From: Mariniblastus sp.
GTDB lineage: Bacteria > Planctomycetota > Planctomycetia > Pirellulales > Pirellulaceae
DNA: 64,000 bases
Reading direction: 5' to 3'
NCBI GenBank assembly: GCA_965224765.1
Contig: CBDDAC010000029.1
Coordinates: forward strand, 488,039-552,038
Below the pieces are notes generated by a model. It ran no database searches. It saw nothing but the letters and a program-made list of their open reading frames with translations, and was not told where the DNA came from. The translations under genes were made by a program, and so were the position numbers. This document shows positions 15,987 through 38,816 of the stretch, one piece after another (position 1 is the stretch's first letter; each line of letters opens with the position of its first letter).

Positions 15987-16934
15987 ATGAAATGCGTTAT
16001 TGCCTTCCTCTTCGTCGCCTGCACGATGTTGGTCCCGCCAAACGATGTGAACGCGAGCGGTCTGTCGTTCTTGCTTCAGGAGGATGGAAAATTGGTGGAT
16101 GGCGGAATGCAGGAAGAAGATGGCACGGTTCGTTCGGAAGACGTCGAGCGTTTGCGGACAGTCGTTTTAGAGGTGAAGCGGCAAGCGTTTTTAGGTCAGC
16201 TAATGATGCAGATTGATCGCCTGGAAAAGTTGTTGAAGTTAAAGGAAAGCCAGGTCAAAAAACTTTCTATCGCTGCCAAGGCTGTTTCGGGAAGACGCAA
16301 AGAGAAGTGGGCAACGCTCATGGACGACTATGAGATGTGGGAAGAAATGGGTCAAAGTGTGGCAGCCAACTTGGATGAACTTGAAAAAGCTGACCTTTCC
16401 GATTTCAGCAAACTCCCTGCTCAATTGCTTTTTTATATGGATGACAGTGAGACATTGGGAATTGTCGCACCGGACTTATTCAGAGATAAGTTTTGGGTCA
16501 AATCACTAAATTCAGTCCTCGATGAACATCAGGCAATGATTTACGAAGAGGATTTGGCCAAGCGGAACGACAAGGTGCTCGGAAGTTTAATCGACTATGT
16601 GACGCAAAATTTTGTCCGCGAGCTTTTACTGACCGAAGAAACAGCGCTGGCCGTAGAGAAGTTTGTAAAATCGGAGCTCGAGAAAAATCCGATCCGCCCG
16701 GAATTTTTGTCGATGTATTCTGAAGTGATCAACTTGGTAATGTCGCGTTTGTCCCTTGCGGACCTAGATGAATTGAAAACGGTTCTCTCGAACAATCAAC
16801 TCAATCGGCTGCGCACGATGCTGGCGGCGTATGGCCCAGATGGATTCATGTTTGTGGAAGAAGCAGATTTTGAACTCGAAGAAAATGAGGTCGAAGAAGC
16901 CGAAGCCGATGATGAAGAGATGGATGACGAGTAG
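15987..16934 (+). CDS. Hypothetical secreted protein with an acidic C-terminal tail
   Basis: ORF 15927..16934. An internal start gives the signal peptide MKCVIAFLFVACTMLVPPNDVNA. The body is helical and the tail is D/E-rich (EENEVEEAEADDEEMDDE). Confidence 0.45.
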   Translation: MKCVIAFLFVACTMLVPPNDVNASGLSFLLQEDGKLVDGGMQEEDGTVRSEDVERLRTVVLEVKRQAFLGQLMMQIDRLEKLLKLKESQVKKLSIAAKAVSGRRKEKWATLMDDYEMWEEMGQSVAANLDELEKADLSDFSKLPAQLLFYMDDSETLGIVAPDLFRDKFWVKSLNSVLDEHQAMIYEEDLAKRNDKVLGSLIDYVTQNFVRELLLTEETALAVEKFVKSELEKNPIRPEFLSMYSEVINLVMSRLSLADLDELKTVLSNNQLNRLRTMLAAYGPDGFMFVEEADFELEENEVEEAEADDEEMDDE

Positions 16935-18506: not shown

Positions 18507-19923
18507 CTACTCGGACTTTGATACGGTGAAGTGATGGAAGATTTCGGGGGCCATGCGAGGATGTGTGGCGACTCGGCCCGATTGGTCTTGAACGATCACT
18601 TGATAGTCAACGATTGTCCCAACGGGAAATGCAGGAAATATCGCCACCCAGCGGTTTTCGCTGTGAAGCGGAAGTAGTGAAATGGACTCCCACTCACCCA
18701 GATCTTTTCGAAACTTGACAAGGCATTTCTCCGCATCGATCCCTTCGTTGGCCATGTCCTCGATGGTGACGGTAATCGCGTGGCCTCGATCAGAAAACGG
18801 AACTACCTTAGGCAGCACCGGGTGTTCAAGGCGCAGCAACTGACGATCAAAAATGGCGCGGGTTCGACAGTGCAATGCATCGAAGTGTTTCCATTTATCC
18901 CAGGTAAATCCTTTGACCTCGTAACCGGGCAACGCGTCTTGCCAGGTTTTTATGGCAGCCTTGTCACCGTCGACACCAAAAAGTGGAACGTAGACTTTTC
19001 CGTTGAGGATCAGCGAATTGGTATAAGCGGCGATCGGTGTTTCGCCGGGCCCCTCGCCTTTAACAGGAACTTCAGGGCAGTCGATCCGAAGAATTTCATA
19101 TTTTCTACCGAATGCATTTTTCAGTGATGATAGTATTTTGACATTGCGCTCTAGTCCAGCGGCTTCGGGGTGTCCATAGACGTTCAGAGTCCAGAACTTT
19201 CATCCAACAATCGATATGTTGAATTCCCAAAGGCTCCGTGTTTTCCAGAACGACCAGTCGATTGATTCCGAGATACTGTGCAACCAGTTGGCGGTACGTC
19301 ACTTCATCGGCGACTGGTCGATTTTCTGTAAGTTGAGCCTGAGTGCAAAAAGCGGTACCGTGACCATCGACCAGGAAATTTCCGCCCGTCAAATAGGCGG
19401 GAAACTCAGTAGAAGAATGGCCAAGTGCCTGGGCAACCTCTGTGCAAACTGCATCGTCGCCCGGTCCTGTGCGAAATGTGAAGGCTGCCTCTTCGCCTGT
19501 TTGGGGATAGACGGGATATCCGTCGAAGCGATGGTTGACCATGCTCATTTCGCCATCGCCCCGAAAGATTTGATGCGGCCCCCAGTCGCGTGGCCAGTTG
19601 GATTCAACCGAGCAAGAGATAAATTGGACTTGGTCTGGGCTGACTTTCAACGAATTGATTTTCTCCTTGGCGGCTTCGAGCTTATCAGAGTTGACGAGCA
19701 CGAAAAGCTTTGCATCTTTGGAAAGATCGATGACCAATTCGTCAGGAATCGCCAAGGGCCAGGCAACCAGGGTTCCTACCGCTTGTTCCCATTCAGCGAT
19801 CACTCGATTGGAGCCTGGTAAACGGGGCGATTCTTGAGCTTGAATTTTCGCAGACAATGGATCGCAAAAAAGCATGCTTAGTCCAATCAGAACGACACCG
19901 ATGAATACTCTCGAATTTTGCAT
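18507..19923 (-). pseudogene. Agmatine deiminase / Porphyromonas-type peptidylarginine deiminase family gene split by a frameshift near 19195
   Basis: ORF 19105..19923 carries the N-terminal and middle motifs WPRDWGP, GGNFLVDG and HIDC, then runs into a stop. The C-terminal motifs (AAYTNSLILNGKVYVPLFG, DALHCRTRAI, comparable to the GG.HCiTqQ motif) continue in another frame from the stop at 19200 through ORF 18507..18932. Confidence 0.5.
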
Positions 19924-30986: not shown

Positions 30987-33014
30987 CTAGGCTTTACCTT
31001 TCGCCAGGTTCAATGTCGATGCCTTGGCCGACGACAATCCAGCTCGATTTGCCATGCTGATCATTCCCTGCAACTTGCCCATGACACCTGTGTCATTGGT
31101 TTGTCCCATCATTTGGCCGATCAAAGCGGCAACGGATAGATTCTTCATGTCTTCGGTACCGATACCGAACATCTCCACGTAATTACCCAACTCAGATTTG
31201 AAGTGTTCAGGATCACCATTGAAGAAGGTTTCTTTGACGTCAGTCAATACAGTGCTGCCTTCGACAAGTCGATCGACCTGTTTTCCAGCCGTGATGCTTC
31301 CGACGATATTCTCAAAGAATTTGTTGTCCCCACCGACGATGTCGATGTTGGCGCTCTTGAGTGCTTCCCCGACCATTTCAGCCTGTGCTTCAGCGATCCT
31401 GTGTTGAGTCGCGATGGCTTCCAATTCAATTTCCTTGTCTTTGTTCAGTCGAAGTTTGAACTCTTCGTGCTCGCGACCTACGCCATCGAACAACTTCATC
31501 GCTTCGGCTTTCTGGGTGATGCCTTTTGCGTCGGCATTGAACTTCAATTCTAGAACCTGTGCTTCGGCCGTACCTTCTTTCTTGAGGGCATCGGCTTTTG
31601 CCAGCGTGACTTCTGCTTCGGCCAATCCAGATGCAGCCTCTTCTGCACGAGTCGCATCGGCCAGCATTTTCTTGGCGTCTGTTTCTTTCTCCGCCGCGGT
31701 GCGCTCGGCTTCGGCTGTGATCACGACGGTTTCCGCTTTCAACTCAGCTGATTGTTTCTCTGCTTCGGCAGCTTGAACTTGAACAACCAAATCCTGCTGT
31801 GCGGTTTGTTCGGCAGCGGTAACGGCGACTTGCTTTTTACGATCGGCATCGGCGAATTCGCGGGTGTCTTTGATTTTCTCTTCTTCTTCAACCACTTCAC
31901 GTTCGACCATAACACGCTGGCGGATGACATCTTGAATGTTCTTCTTCTCGACTTCGACCGCTTTTTCTTTTTCGATTTCCGCCAGGGTTACCACTCGTTC
32001 GCGTTCTGTGATCTCGAGACCGCGATCTTTCTCGACTCGTTCAGTCTCGACGGCATCGGTACGTTCTTTGTTCTTGGCGGCAACGATGATGGAGCGAAGC
32101 TTATTCTCTTCGGCGACTTGGATTTCTTCTTCGGCGGTGATCTTTGCGGTTTCAGAGCGTTGTCGTTCCTGTTGGCTGACAATTTCCGATTCGGCTCGCT
32201 CTCGCGCTTTGATTTCCGTGATTTCACGAAGCTGTTTTTCTTCGGCTTCGGCTTGTTGTTTTTCTAGTTCCAGAATGGCTTCGCGAGCTTCGACGTCTTG
32301 TTTGGTGATCGTCTTTTCTTTTTCGCGACGAATGAAGTTGGCTGCCACCTGCTCTCTGGCCGTCAGGTCGGTAATCTTCTTAATACCCTCAGAATCGAGG
32401 ACATTGTTCACGTTGAGTCGCTCAATGGGTGTTTGCTCAAGAAAGTCGATGGCGACATCGTCCAGAACGTAACCATTGAGGTCGGTGCCGATGACCTTTT
32501 TGATTTCGTCGCGGAATTCTTCACGAGAGTTGTACAGATCGACAAAGTCAAACTGCTTGCCAACGGTTTTCAGGGCTTCCGAGAATTTCGGCTCGAAAAG
32601 CTGAATCAGAGAGGTTTCACTTGAGGCGCGTTCGCAACCCAGAAACTGAGCAACGTCAGCAACGCTTTTCGTGTCCTTGTTGACTCGTACAAAGAAATCA
32701 ACACGGATGTCAGCGCGGATGTTGTCTTTACAGATCAAGCCATCCTCACCGTTCCGATCGATGCCGACTTTCTTGACGGTGATATCCATCAATTCAACCT
32801 TGTGAACGACGGGAAAGGCAATCATTCCGTCAAAGGTAACCTTGGTTCCACCCATTCCGTTTTTCACCAAGGCGGTACCTTGAGGAACCTTTCGGTAGCA
32901 GTTGATGACCAGCACCAAGAGTCCGCCGAAGGTCAATACGATCATTCCGGCTATTGTGGCAGTGAGCATAAATGGAAACCCACTATCTTGACCGAGAAGC
33001 AAAATCAAATTCAT
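30987..33014 (-). CDS. Flotillin-family SPFH/band-7 protein (FloT/YqiK-like)
   Basis: An N-terminal TM is followed by an SPFH domain (LVKNGMGGTKVTF...ICKDNIRADIRVDFFVRV...LIQLFEPKFSEALK). A very long E/A/K-rich flotillin coiled-coil comes next. The start codon abuts the NfeD stop, indicating translational coupling. Confidence 0.85.
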   Translation of the reverse strand: MNLILLLGQDSGFPFMLTATIAGMIVLTFGGLLVLVINCYRKVPQGTALVKNGMGGTKVTFDGMIAFPVVHKVELMDITVKKVGIDRNGEDGLICKDNIRADIRVDFFVRVNKDTKSVADVAQFLGCERASSETSLIQLFEPKFSEALKTVGKQFDFVDLYNSREEFRDEIKKVIGTDLNGYVLDDVAIDFLEQTPIERLNVNNVLDSEGIKKITDLTAREQVAANFIRREKEKTITKQDVEAREAILELEKQQAEAEEKQLREITEIKARERAESEIVSQQERQRSETAKITAEEEIQVAEENKLRSIIVAAKNKERTDAVETERVEKDRGLEITERERVVTLAEIEKEKAVEVEKKNIQDVIRQRVMVEREVVEEEEKIKDTREFADADRKKQVAVTAAEQTAQQDLVVQVQAAEAEKQSAELKAETVVITAEAERTAAEKETDAKKMLADATRAEEAASGLAEAEVTLAKADALKKEGTAEAQVLELKFNADAKGITQKAEAMKLFDGVGREHEEFKLRLNKDKEIELEAIATQHRIAEAQAEMVGEALKSANIDIVGGDNKFFENIVGSITAGKQVDRLVEGSTVLTDVKETFFNGDPEHFKSELGNYVEMFGIGTEDMKNLSVAALIGQMMGQTNDTGVMGKLQGMISMANRAGLSSAKASTLNLAKGKA

Positions 33015-33647
33015 CTAGTTACTCTCCAGTTTCGCCAATTCAACGAGGCATACATCTTTTTCGCGATCATAAGCCACGATCATAACGACATTGCCTTTTT
33101 GCAATGTCTGACCGGATTCATTTCTCGCATTTAGAACCATCAAAGGTCCATCAATATTAATTTCAATCTCGCCATATGTTTGGTCGAGTTTCAACGTGTG
33201 CACGACCGCAGTTTGCCCAATCAAATCATTTCGATCAAACTGGCGATCCACCGAACGAAAAACTCGCGCGATCGGAGCAACACAAATTTTGGTTAACAAT
33301 AGGCTGACGGTTCCGCAAGGGAATAACCACATCGCGGTCGTCAACAGGTCGAACTCCGGATTCAAGTAGTGATTGGTACACACTGTTGAGATCCAGAAGA
33401 ACAACGAGAAAAACGACAGGATTAACATCAATGGAACTTGCCCAATATGGAAAAAGGCAAACATCGTTCCGAGGAAACCTTCTGCTAAATGTAGGTCCGC
33501 ATCTCCGTCCATGTCGGCATCGACATCAAAAGCATCGATTCCAACTGCACCAAAGATCACGAATAACCAATACAATGCGACTAAGCCTAACAACGAGGTT
33601 GCCAGTATGTTCGCCGAGTTGGTAATTTCGATCAGGAATTCGCCCAT
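33015..33647 (-). CDS. NfeD-family membrane protein (YuaF/YqiJ-like)
   Basis: 210 aa with several N-terminal TM helices and a C-terminal OB-fold-like region (GQTAVVHTLKLDQTYGEIEINIDGPLMVLNARNESGQTLQKGNVVMIV). It sits immediately upstream of flotillin in the canonical nfeD-floT arrangement. Confidence 0.75.
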   Translation of the reverse strand: MGEFLIEITNSANILATSLLGLVALYWLFVIFGAVGIDAFDVDADMDGDADLHLAEGFLGTMFAFFHIGQVPLMLILSFFSLFFWISTVCTNHYLNPEFDLLTTAMWLFPCGTVSLLLTKICVAPIARVFRSVDRQFDRNDLIGQTAVVHTLKLDQTYGEIEINIDGPLMVLNARNESGQTLQKGNVVMIVAYDREKDVCLVELAKLESN

Positions 33648-34002
33648 CGTTTACTCATTAAGTTATGGAGGGAAGTTTTGCGGTGGTTTGATCAACCGTT
33701 ATCACGCGCAATCCGAGCGCAAAAATAGCTTAACGTTATCTGGCCGCACAAAGAATGATGCTCAATTGCTCCCAATTCAACTGAGCAGACAAGGTAAATG
33801 CCATTCACATCGATGTCGAGAATTTCAGGGTCACGAAGATAGTCAACTTGATGTTCTGCATTTTGAACGGTATTCGCTGCAGGGTCATGAATATTGCCGA
33901 GAATCCCTTTCGGTGCGTTCAAATCCTGGTTTTTGCCCCTTCATATGATCCTTAGGCTTTGGCGAAATCGCAGTTAACGGGTGGCATGATCGAGGCTCCC
34001 GT

Positions 34003-34036
34003 GCAAAAAAAAACGCCCAGGCGAATAGCCTGAGCG
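34003..34036 (-). terminator. Rho-independent terminator downstream of the TlpA-like gene
   Basis: On the minus strand the hairpin cgctcaggc-tattc-gcctgggcg is followed by nine T (plus strand tgcaaaaaaaaacgcccaggcgaatagcctgagcg). It begins about 30 nt after the stop at 34065. Confidence 0.7.
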
Positions 34037-34064
34037 TGAGAAAAACGACATTGGCGATGAAGGA

Positions 34065-35312
34065 CTATTTGTCCTTCTTTTTTGCCTTGGGTTTGTCTTC
34101 GTCTTTGTCTTCGTCATCGTGGGTGATTTCAACTTCGTGGCCCATCTCAGCGAGAAGCGTTGTGACGGCGTTGTCCATTTTGGCGCCTCGAACACCTTTG
34201 TAGCGAATGACACCATCAGCATCGAGAACATAAATCGTCGGCCAACCTTGCACACCCCATTTGGTAGAGATGGGTCCGCCGGTCCCGTCTGGACCATTCC
34301 AGAAGCTTCGCCAAGTAATATTCTTCTCTTTGACAACCTTCTGAATTTCTTCCAGGTCTGGATCACTATTTACGCCGATCAGTGCAAAAGGCTTGTCTGC
34401 CAATTGTTTTACGAGCGACCGCTCGTGTGGGAACATCGCCCGGCAAGGAGGTCACCAATCGCCCCAGAAGTCGATTACGACAACTTTTCCACGATAGTCA
34501 CTCAGCTTGAACTCGACTTCATCAAGATCGGCGCCTTCAATATCGGGAGCAACTTTGCCGATTTGCAGATATCGCATTTCAAACAATTTGCTCTCGGCCA
34601 TTTCACCAAGAGTGCCGCGTCCAGCATCAACGTCAGAGTAGTTTTCCACGATGGACTCAAAAAGTTGTTCGACTTCCGCATCGATGGCTTTTGCAGACCA
34701 TTTTGTCATGAACGCTTCGCCACCGTCGCCGATTGATTCCAGCATTCGTTTCTGACGTCGTTCAGAAGCATCATGAAAACTAGAGAGGCTCGATAGCATT
34801 GAGGCCAGGCTCATGGTGGCATAGCCTTTGACTTTGTCGTGTGGACTGACTTCGATAAGCTTGCGGAGCAATGCTTCCGAATCAGGGCCTGGTTTTCTTG
34901 CGAATGATCTTGCAACGGCGGCAAGTTCCTCCGAGTCGTTGAACTCTGACATGAGGGTTTCAACTGCAGAGTCGGCGATGTCACCTTGGGAGCTTTCAAT
35001 AACCCAAACCAGCATCTGGAGGGCCTCTGCCTCTTCGGCACCTTCAACGAGCCCAAGAACTTTTGTGCCCAGCTCTTCCGTCGCGTCCGCGAACTCCAAG
35101 TTGATGGCTTCCTTCTCTTCATTCGTTGCGTTGCGAGTTTCTTTTCGCTGCTTGCTACGCAATTTTGAGAATGCCCGTTTTGCATCGCGGAATTGCTCTG
35201 CGATTGTAGGTTCTTCTTCCTGCTTTGAGTCAGCCTTTTCATCGTCTTGCGCGATCAAAATGGGGGCCATCAAAAGCAGTAACATTAGCGACAATAGCCA
35301 ACGCAGTTTCAT
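34065..35312 (-). CDS. TlpA/ResA-like secreted thiol:disulfide oxidoreductase, candidate selenoprotein with in-frame TGA at 34452..34454 (W-U-P-P-C)
   Basis: ORFs 34452..35312 and 34065..34436 are in the same frame and are separated only by TGA plus five codons. Read through, they give ...DYRGKVVVIDFWGDW-[TGA]-PPCRAMFPHERSLVKQLADKPFALIGVNSDPD...GWPTIYVLDADGVIRY, a textbook TlpA fold with TGA at the first active-site Cys. An N-terminal signal peptide and a helical domain precede it. Confidence 0.6.
34411..34426 (-). promoter_or_regulatory. SECIS-like hairpin downstream of the in-frame UGA
   Basis: The mRNA reads ACGAGC-GGUC-GCUCGU, a 6-bp perfect stem with a GGUC apical loop. Its 5' base lies 26 nt after UGA, so the loop is at +35 to +38. 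The loop resembles the E. coli fdhF SECIS apical loop. Confidence 0.4.
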
Positions 35313-35558
35313 CGTGTTACTCCAATAGAGGTGTTTGGGTTAAGGGGTTGTGTAGCATACCAGCTTTCTTGCCAGATGAGTGATGTCGAAGCGCTGAATC
35401 GATCACAAAAAGTAGCTGAGCGTACAAGCCCCGACGTTGATACTAAAATCTTCTGCTTCACTTTATTGCAAATTAGGCGGGACAAGTTCATCAACATAAA
35501 AAAAGCGTTGATATCCAGAGATAGCAACGCCTTGTTCAGGGTTTGAATGTCCGACGAA

Positions 35559-38500
35559 CTACTGGTTCCAGTCGGGGATTTTTCGGCCAGGAGTCCATGG
35601 TGCACCCGCTTCATCGAGTTGTTCGAACAAGCTCTGGACATCGTCTTCAATCAGCGTCTGCAAGTCTCCAATGACTTCGCGGTATTCTTCGCCCGCAATT
35701 TCGAATTGACGTTGATGGGTACCGGTGGGGCCCGTCAATGAGCCCATCACGCCACCCATCATCGTGCGAATCCGAGACTGAAGACCAGGATATGCCGATT
35801 CGTTGCGCAGCGATTTGGTCGGATCGCCATTGAATTTTTCCATAATATCCATCAAGCGAAGTTCCAACTCGCGAACTTCGTTTACCAGGGTCGGATCCAA
35901 ATCGGGTGTTCGCTCGATGACTCCTTTGATCGAAGCCAGTTGGGATTGAACTTCCTGGGCAACACTTGTTGCTGCAGATACGGCATCGGACAACCCAGCA
36001 GCTTCCGTGGCAAATTCGATGATGGCGCCTCGATCAATTTCGGAATCACCACCAAAGTTGAGTGGTTCGATTTCAAACTCCGTTGCTCCGATCAATTCGG
36101 TGACTTCCCCTTCGACCATCTGAGAGACCTCAATGGTGTAGGTTCCTGGAATTGCCATGGGGCCACCGCGGCGTCCAAATCCTTCAACACTGAAATCCCA
36201 TTGAGTTCGATGAAGCCCCTTGGAGGTGCTTCCAGGAAGTCGACGAACCACGTCGCCAAAAGAATCGCGGATCGTCAAAGTAACCTTCGGACCGATTTCG
36301 CGATCCTCAGCTTTGAGTTCATCCCAGGTAGGGTAGGGGGCGTCGCGACCGGCGGTCGCAGCCTTGCCGTCTTTTGCCGTTCTTTCAGATTTTTTCGACT
36401 TGAGTGAATCCTTCAGATGATAAGTAAAGTTGACTCCAAAGGCCGGATTGGGCGCGGAGAAAAAGTTGGCACCCTGGAATGCTCTACGACCCACCGCAAG
36501 TGGAGCAGATTGCATAAACATCTGGCCCTTCTTGATCGGAAACATCTTGTTAGTCTCCAGCGTTTCCTCGGAAAGCTCGCGAAGTGGTGTGTAGTCATCC
36601 AGAATGTAGAATCCACGTCCGAATGAAGCGAGGACCAAATCGTTTTCACGTGCTTGAATCTCGATATCACGAATGCCGACGGTTGGAAGGCCAGCACTCA
36701 ACTCAATCCATTTCTCGCCACCATTGATTGTAAAGTAGCAACCAAATTCCGTTCCACAGAACATCAGTTTCGGGTTCACGTGATCTTGTTTAATGGTGTA
36801 AACACTTCCACGTTCAGGAAGATCACCCGTGATATCTGTCCACGACTCGCCTCGATCTGTCGACTTGACGATGTAGGGTCGGAAGTCACCACGCTTATGG
36901 TTGTTGACTGCGACATAAACCGTATCCGCGTCGTGAAGATCGGCTTCGATATCGTTGATGTAACCAAACTCAGGAACTTCCAGCGAACCAAATTTTCCGA
37001 TCGCTTGCCAGGTGCCGCCACCATCTTGAGTGACTTGCACCATGCCATCGTCGGTACCCGCATAAATCAAGCCTTCTTCGAATGGAGATTCGCTGAGGCT
37101 AACGATTGTTCCATAGAGTGATGTGGACGCATTTTTGGCAACGGAATCAACTCCCCATACCCGACCCATCACTTTCAGCGTGTTGCGGTCGATGTTCCGT
37201 GAAAGGTCTTCACTAATGGGCGACCAGTTGTCACCGCGATCGTCGCTTTGGAAAAGGATCTGAGAGCCGTAGTAAATCCTCTTGCTGTCATGAGGTGAAA
37301 TCAAAAGGGCTGAATCCCAGTTCCAACGAAGGGTGGGACCGCCTTTTTCTGGCTGTGGTTTGATGTCGACTCGGGTTTGGGTTCGGCGATCAAATCGAAT
37401 CAATCCACCATACTGCCACTGAGAATACACGGTGTTGGGATCGTCAGGATCAACCGCAGGATCAAAGCCATCACCAAAGACGGTAATGAACCAGTCGCTA
37501 TTTCGAATCCCGTGAATGTTGGTTGTTTGAGAAGGTCCACCCTGTGTCGCGTTGTCCTGAGTCCCGCCATAAACGAAATAGAATGGCAAGTCGTTACTGA
37601 CTGCGACCTTGTAGAACTGGGTGATCGGAAGGTTTGCTTTGAAATCGTACGTTTTCCCGCGATCCCAAGTTTCATAAAGGCCACCATCGCATCCAATGAT
37701 CAGGTGGTCCTGGTCGGCGGGATCGATGACCAACGCGTGGTTGTCAACATGTTTGTCCGCTTCACCGAGTGATTCGAAATTTTGGCCGCCATCCTCACTG
37801 ACCATCATGTAAGTATCCAGCGAATAGATGCGATCTAACTTGTGAGGACATGCAACAATTTCCTGGTAGTACTGTGGGCTTCCAGAAACGTAATCGCCCA
37901 TTCGAGACCAAGTTTCACCTCGGTTAGCACTTCGGTAAAAACCACTTTGACTACCGGTTGCTTCGACGACCGCGTAAAGAATTTCGGGATTGACCGGCGA
38001 AATGTCCATCCCGATTCGGCCTTTGTCACCGCCTGGCAATCCGCGGTTGATTTTCCGCCAGGTGGTACCGCCGTCAGTTGATTTGTGAATACCCGATTCT
38101 GGCCCACCATCAATTAGAACCCAGGTGTGTCTTCTTCGCTGATAAGACGAAGCGTACATGATGTTTGGATTTGTGGGATCCAAGTGAACTTCGTTAATTC
38201 CGGTATCTTTACTGATGTCGAGAACTTTGCTCCAGGTCGAACCCCCATCGATCGTTTTGTAAAGTCCTCGGTCGCCACCTTCGCTCCAGAGCGGACCTTG
38301 TGCCGCAACGAACACAATGTTGCTATCGTCGGGATGAACAACGATTTTGCCGATGTGTTCACTGTTTTCCAAGCCGACCCGCTTAAAGCTTTGTCCGCCA
38401 TCAGTGGATTTGTACAGTCCATCGCCATAGCCGACGGAACGCTGTGAGTTATTTTCTCCTGTACCGACCCAGATCGTAAAACGATCGTTGGGGTCAATCG

Positions 38501-38816
38501 CCAGGCAACCGATTGAGTAGCTGCCATGATTGTCAAAAATTGGTTTCCAGGTCACACCCGCATTTTCAGTTTTCCAAACCCCGCCGCTGCATGCCGCGAT
38601 GTACCAGGTGCTTGGCTTGATGGGATCGATGACAATGTCGCCGATTCGGCCAGACATTAATGCCGGCCCGATATTTCGAAACGAAAGCGCGGAGACAAGA
38701 CCAGAATTGAGTCCTGGTGTTGGGTCCTCCGAAGTGTCAGTGTCCTGAGCATTTCCCAGATTGGGTGAAAGACAAAATGCAATTGCGAGAACGCAAAGCC
38801 AAAGTTGTCGCGTCAT
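35559..38816 (-). CDS. Secreted sortilin/VPS10-type BNR-repeat beta-propeller protein (often annotated glycosyl hydrolase, BNR repeat)
   Basis: 1085 aa with a signal peptide and many S-x-D-x-G-x-T/S-W Asp-box motifs (STDGGQSF, TIDGGSTWSKV, STDGGTTWRKI, SEDGGQNF, TQDGGGTWQAI, STDRGESWTDI, INGGEKWIEL). Confidence 0.7.
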   Translation of the reverse strand: MTRQLWLCVLAIAFCLSPNLGNAQDTDTSEDPTPGLNSGLVSALSFRNIGPALMSGRIGDIVIDPIKPSTWYIAACSGGVWKTENAGVTWKPIFDNHGSYSIGCLAIDPNDRFTIWVGTGENNSQRSVGYGDGLYKSTDGGQSFKRVGLENSEHIGKIVVHPDDSNIVFVAAQGPLWSEGGDRGLYKTIDGGSTWSKVLDISKDTGINEVHLDPTNPNIMYASSYQRRRHTWVLIDGGPESGIHKSTDGGTTWRKINRGLPGGDKGRIGMDISPVNPEILYAVVEATGSQSGFYRSANRGETWSRMGDYVSGSPQYYQEIVACPHKLDRIYSLDTYMMVSEDGGQNFESLGEADKHVDNHALVIDPADQDHLIIGCDGGLYETWDRGKTYDFKANLPITQFYKVAVSNDLPFYFVYGGTQDNATQGGPSQTTNIHGIRNSDWFITVFGDGFDPAVDPDDPNTVYSQWQYGGLIRFDRRTQTRVDIKPQPEKGGPTLRWNWDSALLISPHDSKRIYYGSQILFQSDDRGDNWSPISEDLSRNIDRNTLKVMGRVWGVDSVAKNASTSLYGTIVSLSESPFEEGLIYAGTDDGMVQVTQDGGGTWQAIGKFGSLEVPEFGYINDIEADLHDADTVYVAVNNHKRGDFRPYIVKSTDRGESWTDITGDLPERGSVYTIKQDHVNPKLMFCGTEFGCYFTINGGEKWIELSAGLPTVGIRDIEIQARENDLVLASFGRGFYILDDYTPLRELSEETLETNKMFPIKKGQMFMQSAPLAVGRRAFQGANFFSAPNPAFGVNFTYHLKDSLKSKKSERTAKDGKAATAGRDAPYPTWDELKAEDREIGPKVTLTIRDSFGDVVRRLPGSTSKGLHRTQWDFSVEGFGRRGGPMAIPGTYTIEVSQMVEGEVTELIGATEFEIEPLNFGGDSEIDRGAIIEFATEAAGLSDAVSAATSVAQEVQSQLASIKGVIERTPDLDPTLVNEVRELELRLMDIMEKFNGDPTKSLRNESAYPGLQSRIRTMMGGVMGSLTGPTGTHQRQFEIAGEEYREVIGDLQTLIEDDVQSLFEQLDEAGAPWTPGRKIPDWNQ

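Follow-up and report, generated by a model that had tools for sequence, protein, structure and literature searches.

In a 64,000-nucleotide stretch of DNA from Mariniblastus sp. (hereafter the window; assembly GCA_965224765.1, contig CBDDAC010000029.1, positions 488,039 to 552,038), a gene for a thioredoxin-like protein on the minus strand is interrupted by a single in-frame TGA, at the codon where the first active-site cysteine belongs. The question raised by this locus is whether the TGA ends translation or is read as selenocysteine (Sec). An examination of the letters alone, here called the sequence-only reading, had proposed the latter. That proposal is supported by the conservation of the TGA in relatives, by the translation of the codons that follow it, and by a downstream hairpin whose conservation is tied to the TGA. 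We therefore consider it very probable that this codon specifies Sec, in a redox protein that resembles TlpA and is predicted to be secreted.

Gene organization and reading frame

The minus strand carries one frame, from 35312 to 34065, whose sole interruption is the TGA at 34454..34452. The open reading frame (ORF) that ends with it (35312..34452, minus) encodes 286 amino acids (aa), the last of which are ...DFWGDW. Five codons follow the TGA, namely CCT CCT TGC CGG GCG (34437..34451, minus); they specify P-P-C-R-A, contain the resolving Cys and include no start codon. The ATG at 34436 then opens a second ORF of 123 aa in the same frame, which stays open to the TAG at 34067..34065. The two same-frame ORFs, split by the TGA and five codons, lie where the sequence-only reading had mapped them. 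When the TGA is read through, the product is ...GKVVVIDFWGDW-U-PPCRAMFPHERSL....

The complete gene (34065..35312, minus) thus consists of 415 codons, one Sec codon included, between the ATG at 35312..35310 and the TAG, and the same layout is found in seven syntenic orthologous loci. Ahead of the ATG there is a Shine-Dalgarno-like GGAG motif at 35323..35320. The proposed Sec codon (34452..34454, minus) is residue 287; it occupies the nucleophilic position of a UxxC motif (U, Sec) and aligns with Cys both in Cys-form homologues and in structures from the PDB. The intrinsic terminator that had been assigned to the gene is real. It follows the TAG stop (34003..34037, minus) and has a 10-bp stem (34037..34013) with seven G-C pairs, succeeded by TTTTTTTT (T8). 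Elsewhere in the window TGA is an ordinary stop, namely that of 10 of the 41 other genes; the genetic code is therefore not reassigned.

Conservation of the TGA codon

Relatives were collected from one genome per GTDB species. The query was limited to the protein sequence downstream of the CxxC motif, because in this way neither a TGA nor a Cys codon is favoured at the active site. The scan yielded 517 relatives, of which the best 80 loci come from about 67 assemblies of Pirellulaceae, Mariniblastus and other Planctomycetota; these best 80 of the 517 are essentially all Sec forms. The sequence-only reading had asked whether orthologues carry Cys or TGA. In the best scan loci together with the metagenome loci, the active-site codon is TGA at 96 sites and TGG at 1, while TAA, TAG and TGY do not occur, i.e., none of these loci encodes Cys. 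The Cys-form homologues, with the motif W-C-x-x-C, carry TGC or TGT at the TGA codon, and the two types thus form a Sec/Cys pair.

When protein databases were searched with the read-through product, eight homologues were obtained; they are 286-291 aa long and 44-57% identical, and all of them end in ...DFWGDW. In the seven syntenic orthologous loci the TGA is kept at the same codon, with an identity of just 45-58% in the N-terminal domain, and it is followed in each by a second ORF of 121-133 aa.

Translation past the TGA

The codons around the TGA were analyzed in 88 distinct sequences, from codon -20 to codon +34. From the TGA to the ATG the protein sequence is kept as [P/G]-P-C-R-A, while the third positions vary: all four CCN codons are used, as are TGC and TGT, and all four GCN codons. 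The next 30 codons behave likewise, synonymous variation at conserved amino acids being seen over 120 downstream codons in all, and the protein downstream of the TGA is under strong purifying selection. Because the post-TGA codons vary synonymously, and because no start codon lies between the TGA and the ATG, the ribosome must pass the TGA in frame. This pattern of substitutions, then, shows that the codons after the TGA are translated.

The hairpin downstream of the TGA

A hairpin with the sequence ACGAGC/GGUC/GCUCGU begins 25 nucleotides (nt) after the UGA (34411..34426, minus). It has a 6-bp stem and a GGUC tetraloop at 34420..34417, the loop being 31 nt from the UGA, or nt +35 to +38 when counted from the U of the UGA. 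The stem, the loop and the loop position are those given in the sequence-only reading; only the spacer differs, being 25 rather than 26 nt. The computed energy is -7.9 kcal/mol for the hairpin alone and -8.7 kcal/mol with flanking bases.

According to a 2026 review, the consensus bacterial Sec insertion sequence (SECIS) element, or bSECIS, has an apical loop of 3-9 nt and a stem of 4-16 bp, a G at the first two positions of the loop (as a rule G[G/U]), a distance of 16-37 nt from the UGA to the loop, and an energy of -7.5 kcal/mol or lower (PMC13188914). The present hairpin agrees with all four criteria: it has the 4-nt GGUC loop, the 6-bp stem, the 31-nt spacing and an energy of -7.9 kcal/mol. 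The range of 16-37 nt given in the sequence-only reading is thus confirmed, and the observed spacing falls inside it.

Weak evidence is all that the hairpin provides in a single sequence: the z-score of the 81-nt fold is -1.05, and 4% of the TGA trinucleotides in the window have some hairpin downstream that fits the SECIS model. A stem of at least 6 bp with a 4-nt G[G/U]NN loop follows 8 of the 2669 TGA trinucleotides, and a GGUC loop is found after this TGA only. It is the comparative data that take the signal well beyond chance.

In these data, codons +9 to +13 (CAC GAG CGG TCG CTC) have a synonymous entropy of 0-0.09 bits across the 88 sequences. The other degenerate codons from -20 to +34 have 0.58-2.4 bits, with the exception of codons +4 and +7. 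Five synonymous sites are fixed within the 17-nt hairpin region, including those of the six-fold degenerate Arg, Ser and Leu codons, and the codons that are fixed are non-preferred ones: in the window, CGG accounts for 12% of Arg, CTC for 16% of Leu and GAG for 36% of Glu. Departures from the hairpin consensus are a CAU codon in L058, which keeps a U-G pair; a GGAC loop in L070; and the loss of two basal pairs in L051. Over 90 aligned sequences, 99.6% of stem cells are paired.

The Cys forms provide the counterpart. Four of them have the identical peptide HERSLVK, and in all four, synonymous substitutions have changed the loop or disrupted the stem: L091 (active-site TGC) has CGA and CTT, L092 (TGT) has CGC and CTA, L093 (TGT) has CAT and GAA, and L094 (TGT) has CGA, TCA and CTT. 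More distant Cys forms alter the peptide itself, to HEQEVS, HERFVT, YQRSLV or HERYLV. The hairpin has decayed in the Cys forms, and so the constraint at the nucleotide level exists only where the TGA exists; in these alignments, conservation of the hairpin goes with that of the TGA. The suggestion of the sequence-only reading that hairpin conservation be examined is thereby answered, with conservation of the nucleotides across the 88 sequences and its loss in the four Cys forms.

The two other codons with nearly fixed synonymous sites could form an auxiliary mini-helix of 3 bp between the UGA and the SECIS element, G14-G16/C24-C26 (34429..34441, minus). Codon +4, for Arg, is CGG in 82 of 84 sequences (G15), and codon +7, TAC or TTC, ends in C (C24), being TAC in 73 of 74; 96.7% of the mini-helix cells are paired. 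The two sequences with CGT at codon +4 are also the only ones to change codon +8 from CCN to GGA. Possible explanations for these sites are a shortened effective spacer, an alternative structure, or a protein contact.

Two further candidates were rejected. In the window sequence, nt 9-13 pair with nt 54-58 as a lower stem that closes the structure; across the alignment 67.6% of the cells of this stem are paired, no better than in shuffled sequences. A copy of the 17-nt hairpin with three mismatches, at 16052..16068 (plus), is due to chance: no in-frame TGA accompanies it, and it falls within the part of an unrelated ORF that encodes the signal peptide.

Decoding of the TGA and its alternatives

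In the mechanism that we propose, the UGA at 34454..34452 would be read as Sec. With the ribosome at the UGA, the hairpin at 34426..34411 would be bound by SelB carrying Sec-tRNA(Sec), and SelB would bring this tRNA to the A site, competing there with release factor 2. The ribosome would then go on through Pro-Pro-Cys to the TAG at 34065. Incorporation of selenium and binding of SelB to the hairpin are predicted here from conservation in DNA. Some planctomycetes, namely two Porphyra-associated strains, Gemmata and Isosphaera, have a full selA/B/C/D set together with thioredoxin-like Sec candidates (PMC4807772).

Several observations weigh against Sec decoding. The first concerns the machinery. 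ARAGORN identified no tRNA gene in the 64-kb window, and hence no tRNA-Sec; a Pfam scan of the 40 main ORFs of the window gave no SelA, SelB or SelD; and tblastn with the E. coli SelA, SelB and SelD proteins, together with ARAGORN, found nothing in 575 kb comprising the window and related loci. This outcome is expected, since the sample is so small, and the conservation of the TGA and the hairpin across dozens of species would be hard to explain without working decoding. The second concerns the element. Its loop is 31 nt from the UGA as compared with 18 nt in E. coli fdhF, a geometry unlike that of the only well-studied case. In the context of the surrounding RNA the stem has a pairing probability of about 0.005, a competing structure being preferred. 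Rfam (release 15), searched with gathering and with permissive thresholds, returned no match to the hairpin, and the region 34000-34700 had only chance-level hits (E > 1). A covariation test on the 90 aligned sequences gave no compensatory support, the hairpin being invariant; because it never varies, covariation statistics are uninformative, and the support comes from the conservation of synonymous sites. The third is a natural variant, L079 (3015 region; protein cluster P0014, with 17 members), which has TGG (Trp) at the active site, hence WWAPC, and an intact hairpin. Its near-identical sister, L076, carries TGA. As L079 and L076 differ by very few bases, the TGG is recent; in L079, Sec seems to have been replaced by Trp not long ago, and this replacement should abolish the nucleophile.

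Three of these observations would also be compatible with programmed read-through independent of Sec, in which the UGA is decoded by a near-cognate tRNA (for Trp or Cys) and the hairpin is a stimulator only; they are the Sec machinery not seen in the 64-kb window or in the 575 kb of related loci, the Trp variant with its intact hairpin (L079, P0014), and a spacing between UGA and loop unlike that of fdhF. However, Trp at the nucleophilic position would kill the redox chemistry, and the TGG of L079 is recent, while Cys would be encoded far more cheaply by TGY, as it is in the Cys-form paralogues. In addition, the hairpin fits the consensus for SelB binding down to the GGUC loop of fdhF, and a UGA/Cys pair at CxxC is the classic signature of a selenoprotein (PMC13188914). 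We thus regard Sec-independent read-through as highly improbable.

A genuinely split gene is more improbable still. Here translation would stop at the TGA, and the C-terminal fragment would be made separately, from the ATG at 34436, or not at all. That ATG, 16 nt past the TGA, is invariant, and all public gene callers annotate two ORFs. Nevertheless, the Met at 34436 shows the same conservation in the Cys forms, in which it is an internal residue, and the five codons between TGA and ATG are conserved as amino acids with synonymous variation, which would be unexplained were they untranslated. A split at this point would also sever the fold at the active site, and the resolving Cys would be lost. 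Lastly, no terminator-like site was found after the TGA, the strong terminator being located only after the TAG.

A recent nonsense mutation (a pseudogene) or a sequencing error, either of which could turn TGC or TGT into TGA by one base and of which the sequence-only reading had warned, might seem in keeping with an apparently frameshifted gene elsewhere in the window, but it is excluded by 96 independent TGA sites in about 67 genomes plus metagenomes with no TAA, TAG or Cys codon, by an identical C-terminal ORF (P0121) on a 1,297,405-bp NCBI/ENA contig that is presumably the source genome, and by strong purifying selection downstream.

Domains and predicted function of the protein

The Sec-containing product is predicted to be secreted and to have two domains behind a signal peptide: about 210 aa of helical repeats and, after them, a TlpA/ResA-type domain with the active site Trp-Sec-Pro-Pro-Cys. 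The predicted signal peptide, MKLRWLLSLMLLLLMAPILIA|QDD (35250..35312, minus), would be of the Sec type (the export pathway, not selenocysteine), as judged from a K/R n-region, a Leu-rich core and a cleavage-like site at LIA-Q. A signal-peptide-like N-terminal segment is kept in the orthologues, and in the N-terminal structural model residues 2-21 form a helix, after which comes a linker of low confidence.

The N-terminal domain, at about aa 37-248 (34569..35204, minus), is all-alpha in an AlphaFold model of the N-terminal ORF, which has a mean predicted local distance difference test score (pLDDT) of 88 and 11 helices across aa 37-248. It is without a known family: neither Pfam nor NCBIfam matches this region of about 210 aa, and Foldseek, run with the model against the PDB, found only generic matches to helical-repeat, TPR, 14-3-3-like and designed-repeat proteins, none at E <= 1e-3.

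The thioredoxin-fold domain, at about aa 251-388 (34149..34562, minus), has the active site W-U-P-P-C and a WPT cis-Pro loop, of which W357 and P358 are invariant in the alignment of homologues. For the Pfam search the U of the read-through protein was replaced by C. Over aa 251-378 the matches are AhpC-TSA (5.8e-20, 71.9 bits, cut-off 26), Redoxin (1.1e-18, 67.9 bits, cut-off 26.6) and Thioredoxin_8 (4e-15, 56.4 bits, cut-off 27). The domain also aligns over its full length with solved TlpA, ResA, DsbE, CcmG and CycY structures, the PDB matches including 2lrn, 3kcm, 4nmu (ResA), 1kng (CycY) and 1jfu (TlpA), and the TGA falls on the first Cys of CxxC. The domain is thus a complete TlpA-like fold and a member of the TlpA/ResA/DsbE superfamily; Pfam and the structures agree with the sequence-only reading, which had described a complete TlpA/ResA-type thioredoxin with the stop at the nucleophilic Cys of WCxxC. 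The scores for narrower families in NCBIfam are below the equivalog cut-offs: 67.1 against 170 for ResA (NF002854), 53.7 against 123 for DsbE (TIGR00385) and 45.7 against 230 for TlpA (NF047696). As these scores are far below the cut-offs, the protein is assigned to the superfamily only, and neither client nor function can be transferred from ResA, DsbE or TlpA.

By analogy with the family, the exported protein would act as a thiol-disulfide oxidoreductase of the reductant type, the Sec/Cys pair cycling in the periplasm between the selenol/thiol and the selenenylsulfide. The helical domain is plausibly a module for client recognition, and would probably determine the choice of client. Recharging would probably be carried out by a membrane protein of the CcdA/DsbD type, as it is for TlpA, ResA and CcmG. 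Export, partner and substrate are in each case predictions.

Comparison with known systems

Selenoproteins with a thioredoxin fold and a UxxC motif, which the sequence-only reading had called a recurrent class, are indeed an established one, catalogued since 2004-2006 as 'Prx-like thiol:disulfide oxidoreductase', as 'thiol:disulfide interchange protein' and later as 'UGC-containing TlpA' (PMC1794560, PMC1088965, PMC13188914). The Prx-like and interchange proteins of the Kryukov/Zhang/Gladyshev catalogues share with the present protein the thioredoxin fold, PF00578 as the best Pfam match, and Sec at the first Cys of CxxC; their genes likewise have a bSECIS immediately downstream within the coding region, and Cys homologues are widespread. 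By comparison with the published descriptions of these families, the present clade adds the N-terminal helical-repeat domain of about 210 aa and the predicted signal peptide, and it differs in its motif W-U-[P/G]-P-C, its invariant SECIS element and its several paralogues per genome. In what was sampled, it is confined to Pirellulaceae and Mariniblastus.

Curated ResA/TlpA-like selenoprotein families exist in NCBIfam as well, namely NF041054 ('ResA-like WAxxUGC motif-containing protein') and NF053656 ('TUGYCR motif thioredoxin fold (seleno)protein'), and the concept is therefore already catalogued. The present protein belongs to neither: it scores 29.8 against a cut-off of 300 for NF041054 and 19.3 against 100 for NF053656, and its motif is WGDWUPPC, i.e., UPPC or UGPC rather than UGC. 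Closer in taxonomy are the planctomycete 'P1' candidates, thioredoxins resembling thiol-disulfide isomerases (PMC4807772, Table S9). They are of the same phylum, have an in-frame TGA annotated as two ORFs, and have Cys homologues, and the genome that encodes them has a complete selA/B/C/D set (PMC4807772). They differ, by their description, in that bSECISearch gave no SECIS element for either of the two (PMC4807772).

The TlpA of Bradyrhizobium, the ResA of Bacillus, and CcmG, DsbE and CycY align with the present domain over its full length (PDB 1jfu, 4nmu, 1st9, 1kng and 3kh7; E 1e-9 to 1e-14). The present protein shares its W-x-x-x-C active site and WPT cis-Pro loop with the TlpA/ResA/CcmG group, and is predicted to have an export signal as they do. 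In the TlpA/ResA/CcmG proteins, by contrast, the residue used is Cys; they consist of one domain or are anchored in the membrane, and their clients (cytochrome c, ScoI/CoxB) are defined.

The SECIS element of E. coli fdhF is, like the present one, a hairpin in the coding region past the UGA, and a check of the fdhF sequence confirmed the likeness of the loops that had been pointed out earlier: the fdhF apical tetraloop is an identical GGUC, at nt 22-25 from the U of the UGA. The loop here starts at nt 35 rather than nt 22, i.e., 13 nt further downstream. Furthermore, the 6-bp stem is perfect, without the bulged U of fdhF, its sequence is unrelated, and no lower stem is conserved.

Extent of the clade, annotation and significance

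The gene itself belongs to a familiar class of bacterial selenoproteins; what may be undescribed is the scale and uniformity of the clade. We suggest, tentatively and with more doubt than confidence, that the gene is one member of a large, uncatalogued clade of selenoproteins specific to marine Pirellulaceae and Mariniblastus. In this clade a frozen 17-nt SECIS may dictate the peptide HERSLV, and the element may be set at an unusually large distance downstream of the UGA, possibly beyond an intervening mini-helix. Should this be true, these aerobic planctomycetes would have an unexpectedly selenium-dependent redox system in the periplasm, and the geometry of their SECIS would merit a test against the model from E. 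coli. A literature search, whose coverage was incomplete, found no paper that links Mariniblastus to selenocysteine or that describes the scale or uniformity of the clade.

Several of the genomes have two, three or more paralogues, some of them in tandem. The SECIS element is identical throughout, which suggests a single acquisition of Sec followed by duplication, with occasional reversion to Cys and decay of the hairpin. At L011, L012, L015, L037, L038, L043 and L072 there are two Sec-TlpA genes 685-1384 nt apart, as separate tandem genes. Three public ORFs (P0015, P0026 and P0044) run from 'MY[P/A]HERSLVK', which follows one TGA, to '...DFWG[D/H]W', which precedes the next, with no stop in between; their sequences suggest polypeptides with two Sec-containing modules. 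Scans of the window found no second selenoprotein gene.

The Sec forms are systematically split by gene callers. The best 120 database matches to the 123-aa C-terminal ORF are all fragments of 111-156 aa, labeled 'hypothetical protein' or 'TlpA family protein disulfide reductase', and every public call examined presents the gene and its relatives as two entries, a 'hypothetical protein' and a short fragment named 'TlpA family'. Such annotations could be repaired with a simple rule, W-TGA-[P/G]-P-C followed by CACGAGCGGUCGCUCGU.

The understanding of Sec decoding is unchanged by this gene, selenoproteins with a UxxC motif in a thioredoxin fold having been known for two decades. To judge from the family, marine Pirellulaceae spend selenium on thiol-disulfide redox proteins that are exported. 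The family also offers a natural experiment, in which the overlap of coding and RNA constraints freezes a SECIS element, and the element decays after Sec has reverted to Cys.

Neighbouring genes and other features of the window

The selenoprotein gene is flanked in the window by genes at 30987-33647 and 35559-38816 (minus), a 1085-aa BNR/sortilin-like gene being on one side and a 210-aa and 675-aa pair on the other; they recur in the orthologous contigs. Upstream, the syntenic loci have a gene for a BNR/sortilin-like protein of 1085 aa, and at L008 and L009 a 564-aa gene sits in between. Downstream they have genes of 210 aa and 675 aa, which follow directly in four loci and after one to three small ORFs in five. 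No Pfam family matches the 675-aa protein, much of which is charged and resembles a coiled coil.

The frameshifted gene mentioned above is a PAD_porph/agmatine-deiminase-like gene at 18520-19923 (minus). Its ORF, 19923..19105, covers only positions 2-206 of the 321 positions of the profile. A one-base shift of frame is apparent at TGGATGAAAGTTCTGG, near 19189-19206, and the other frame adds about 230 aa, with a motif resembling that of a catalytic Cys (...DALHCRT...). The gene is apparently a frameshifted pseudogene, the product of a sequencing error in the A-run, or a case of programmed frameshifting.

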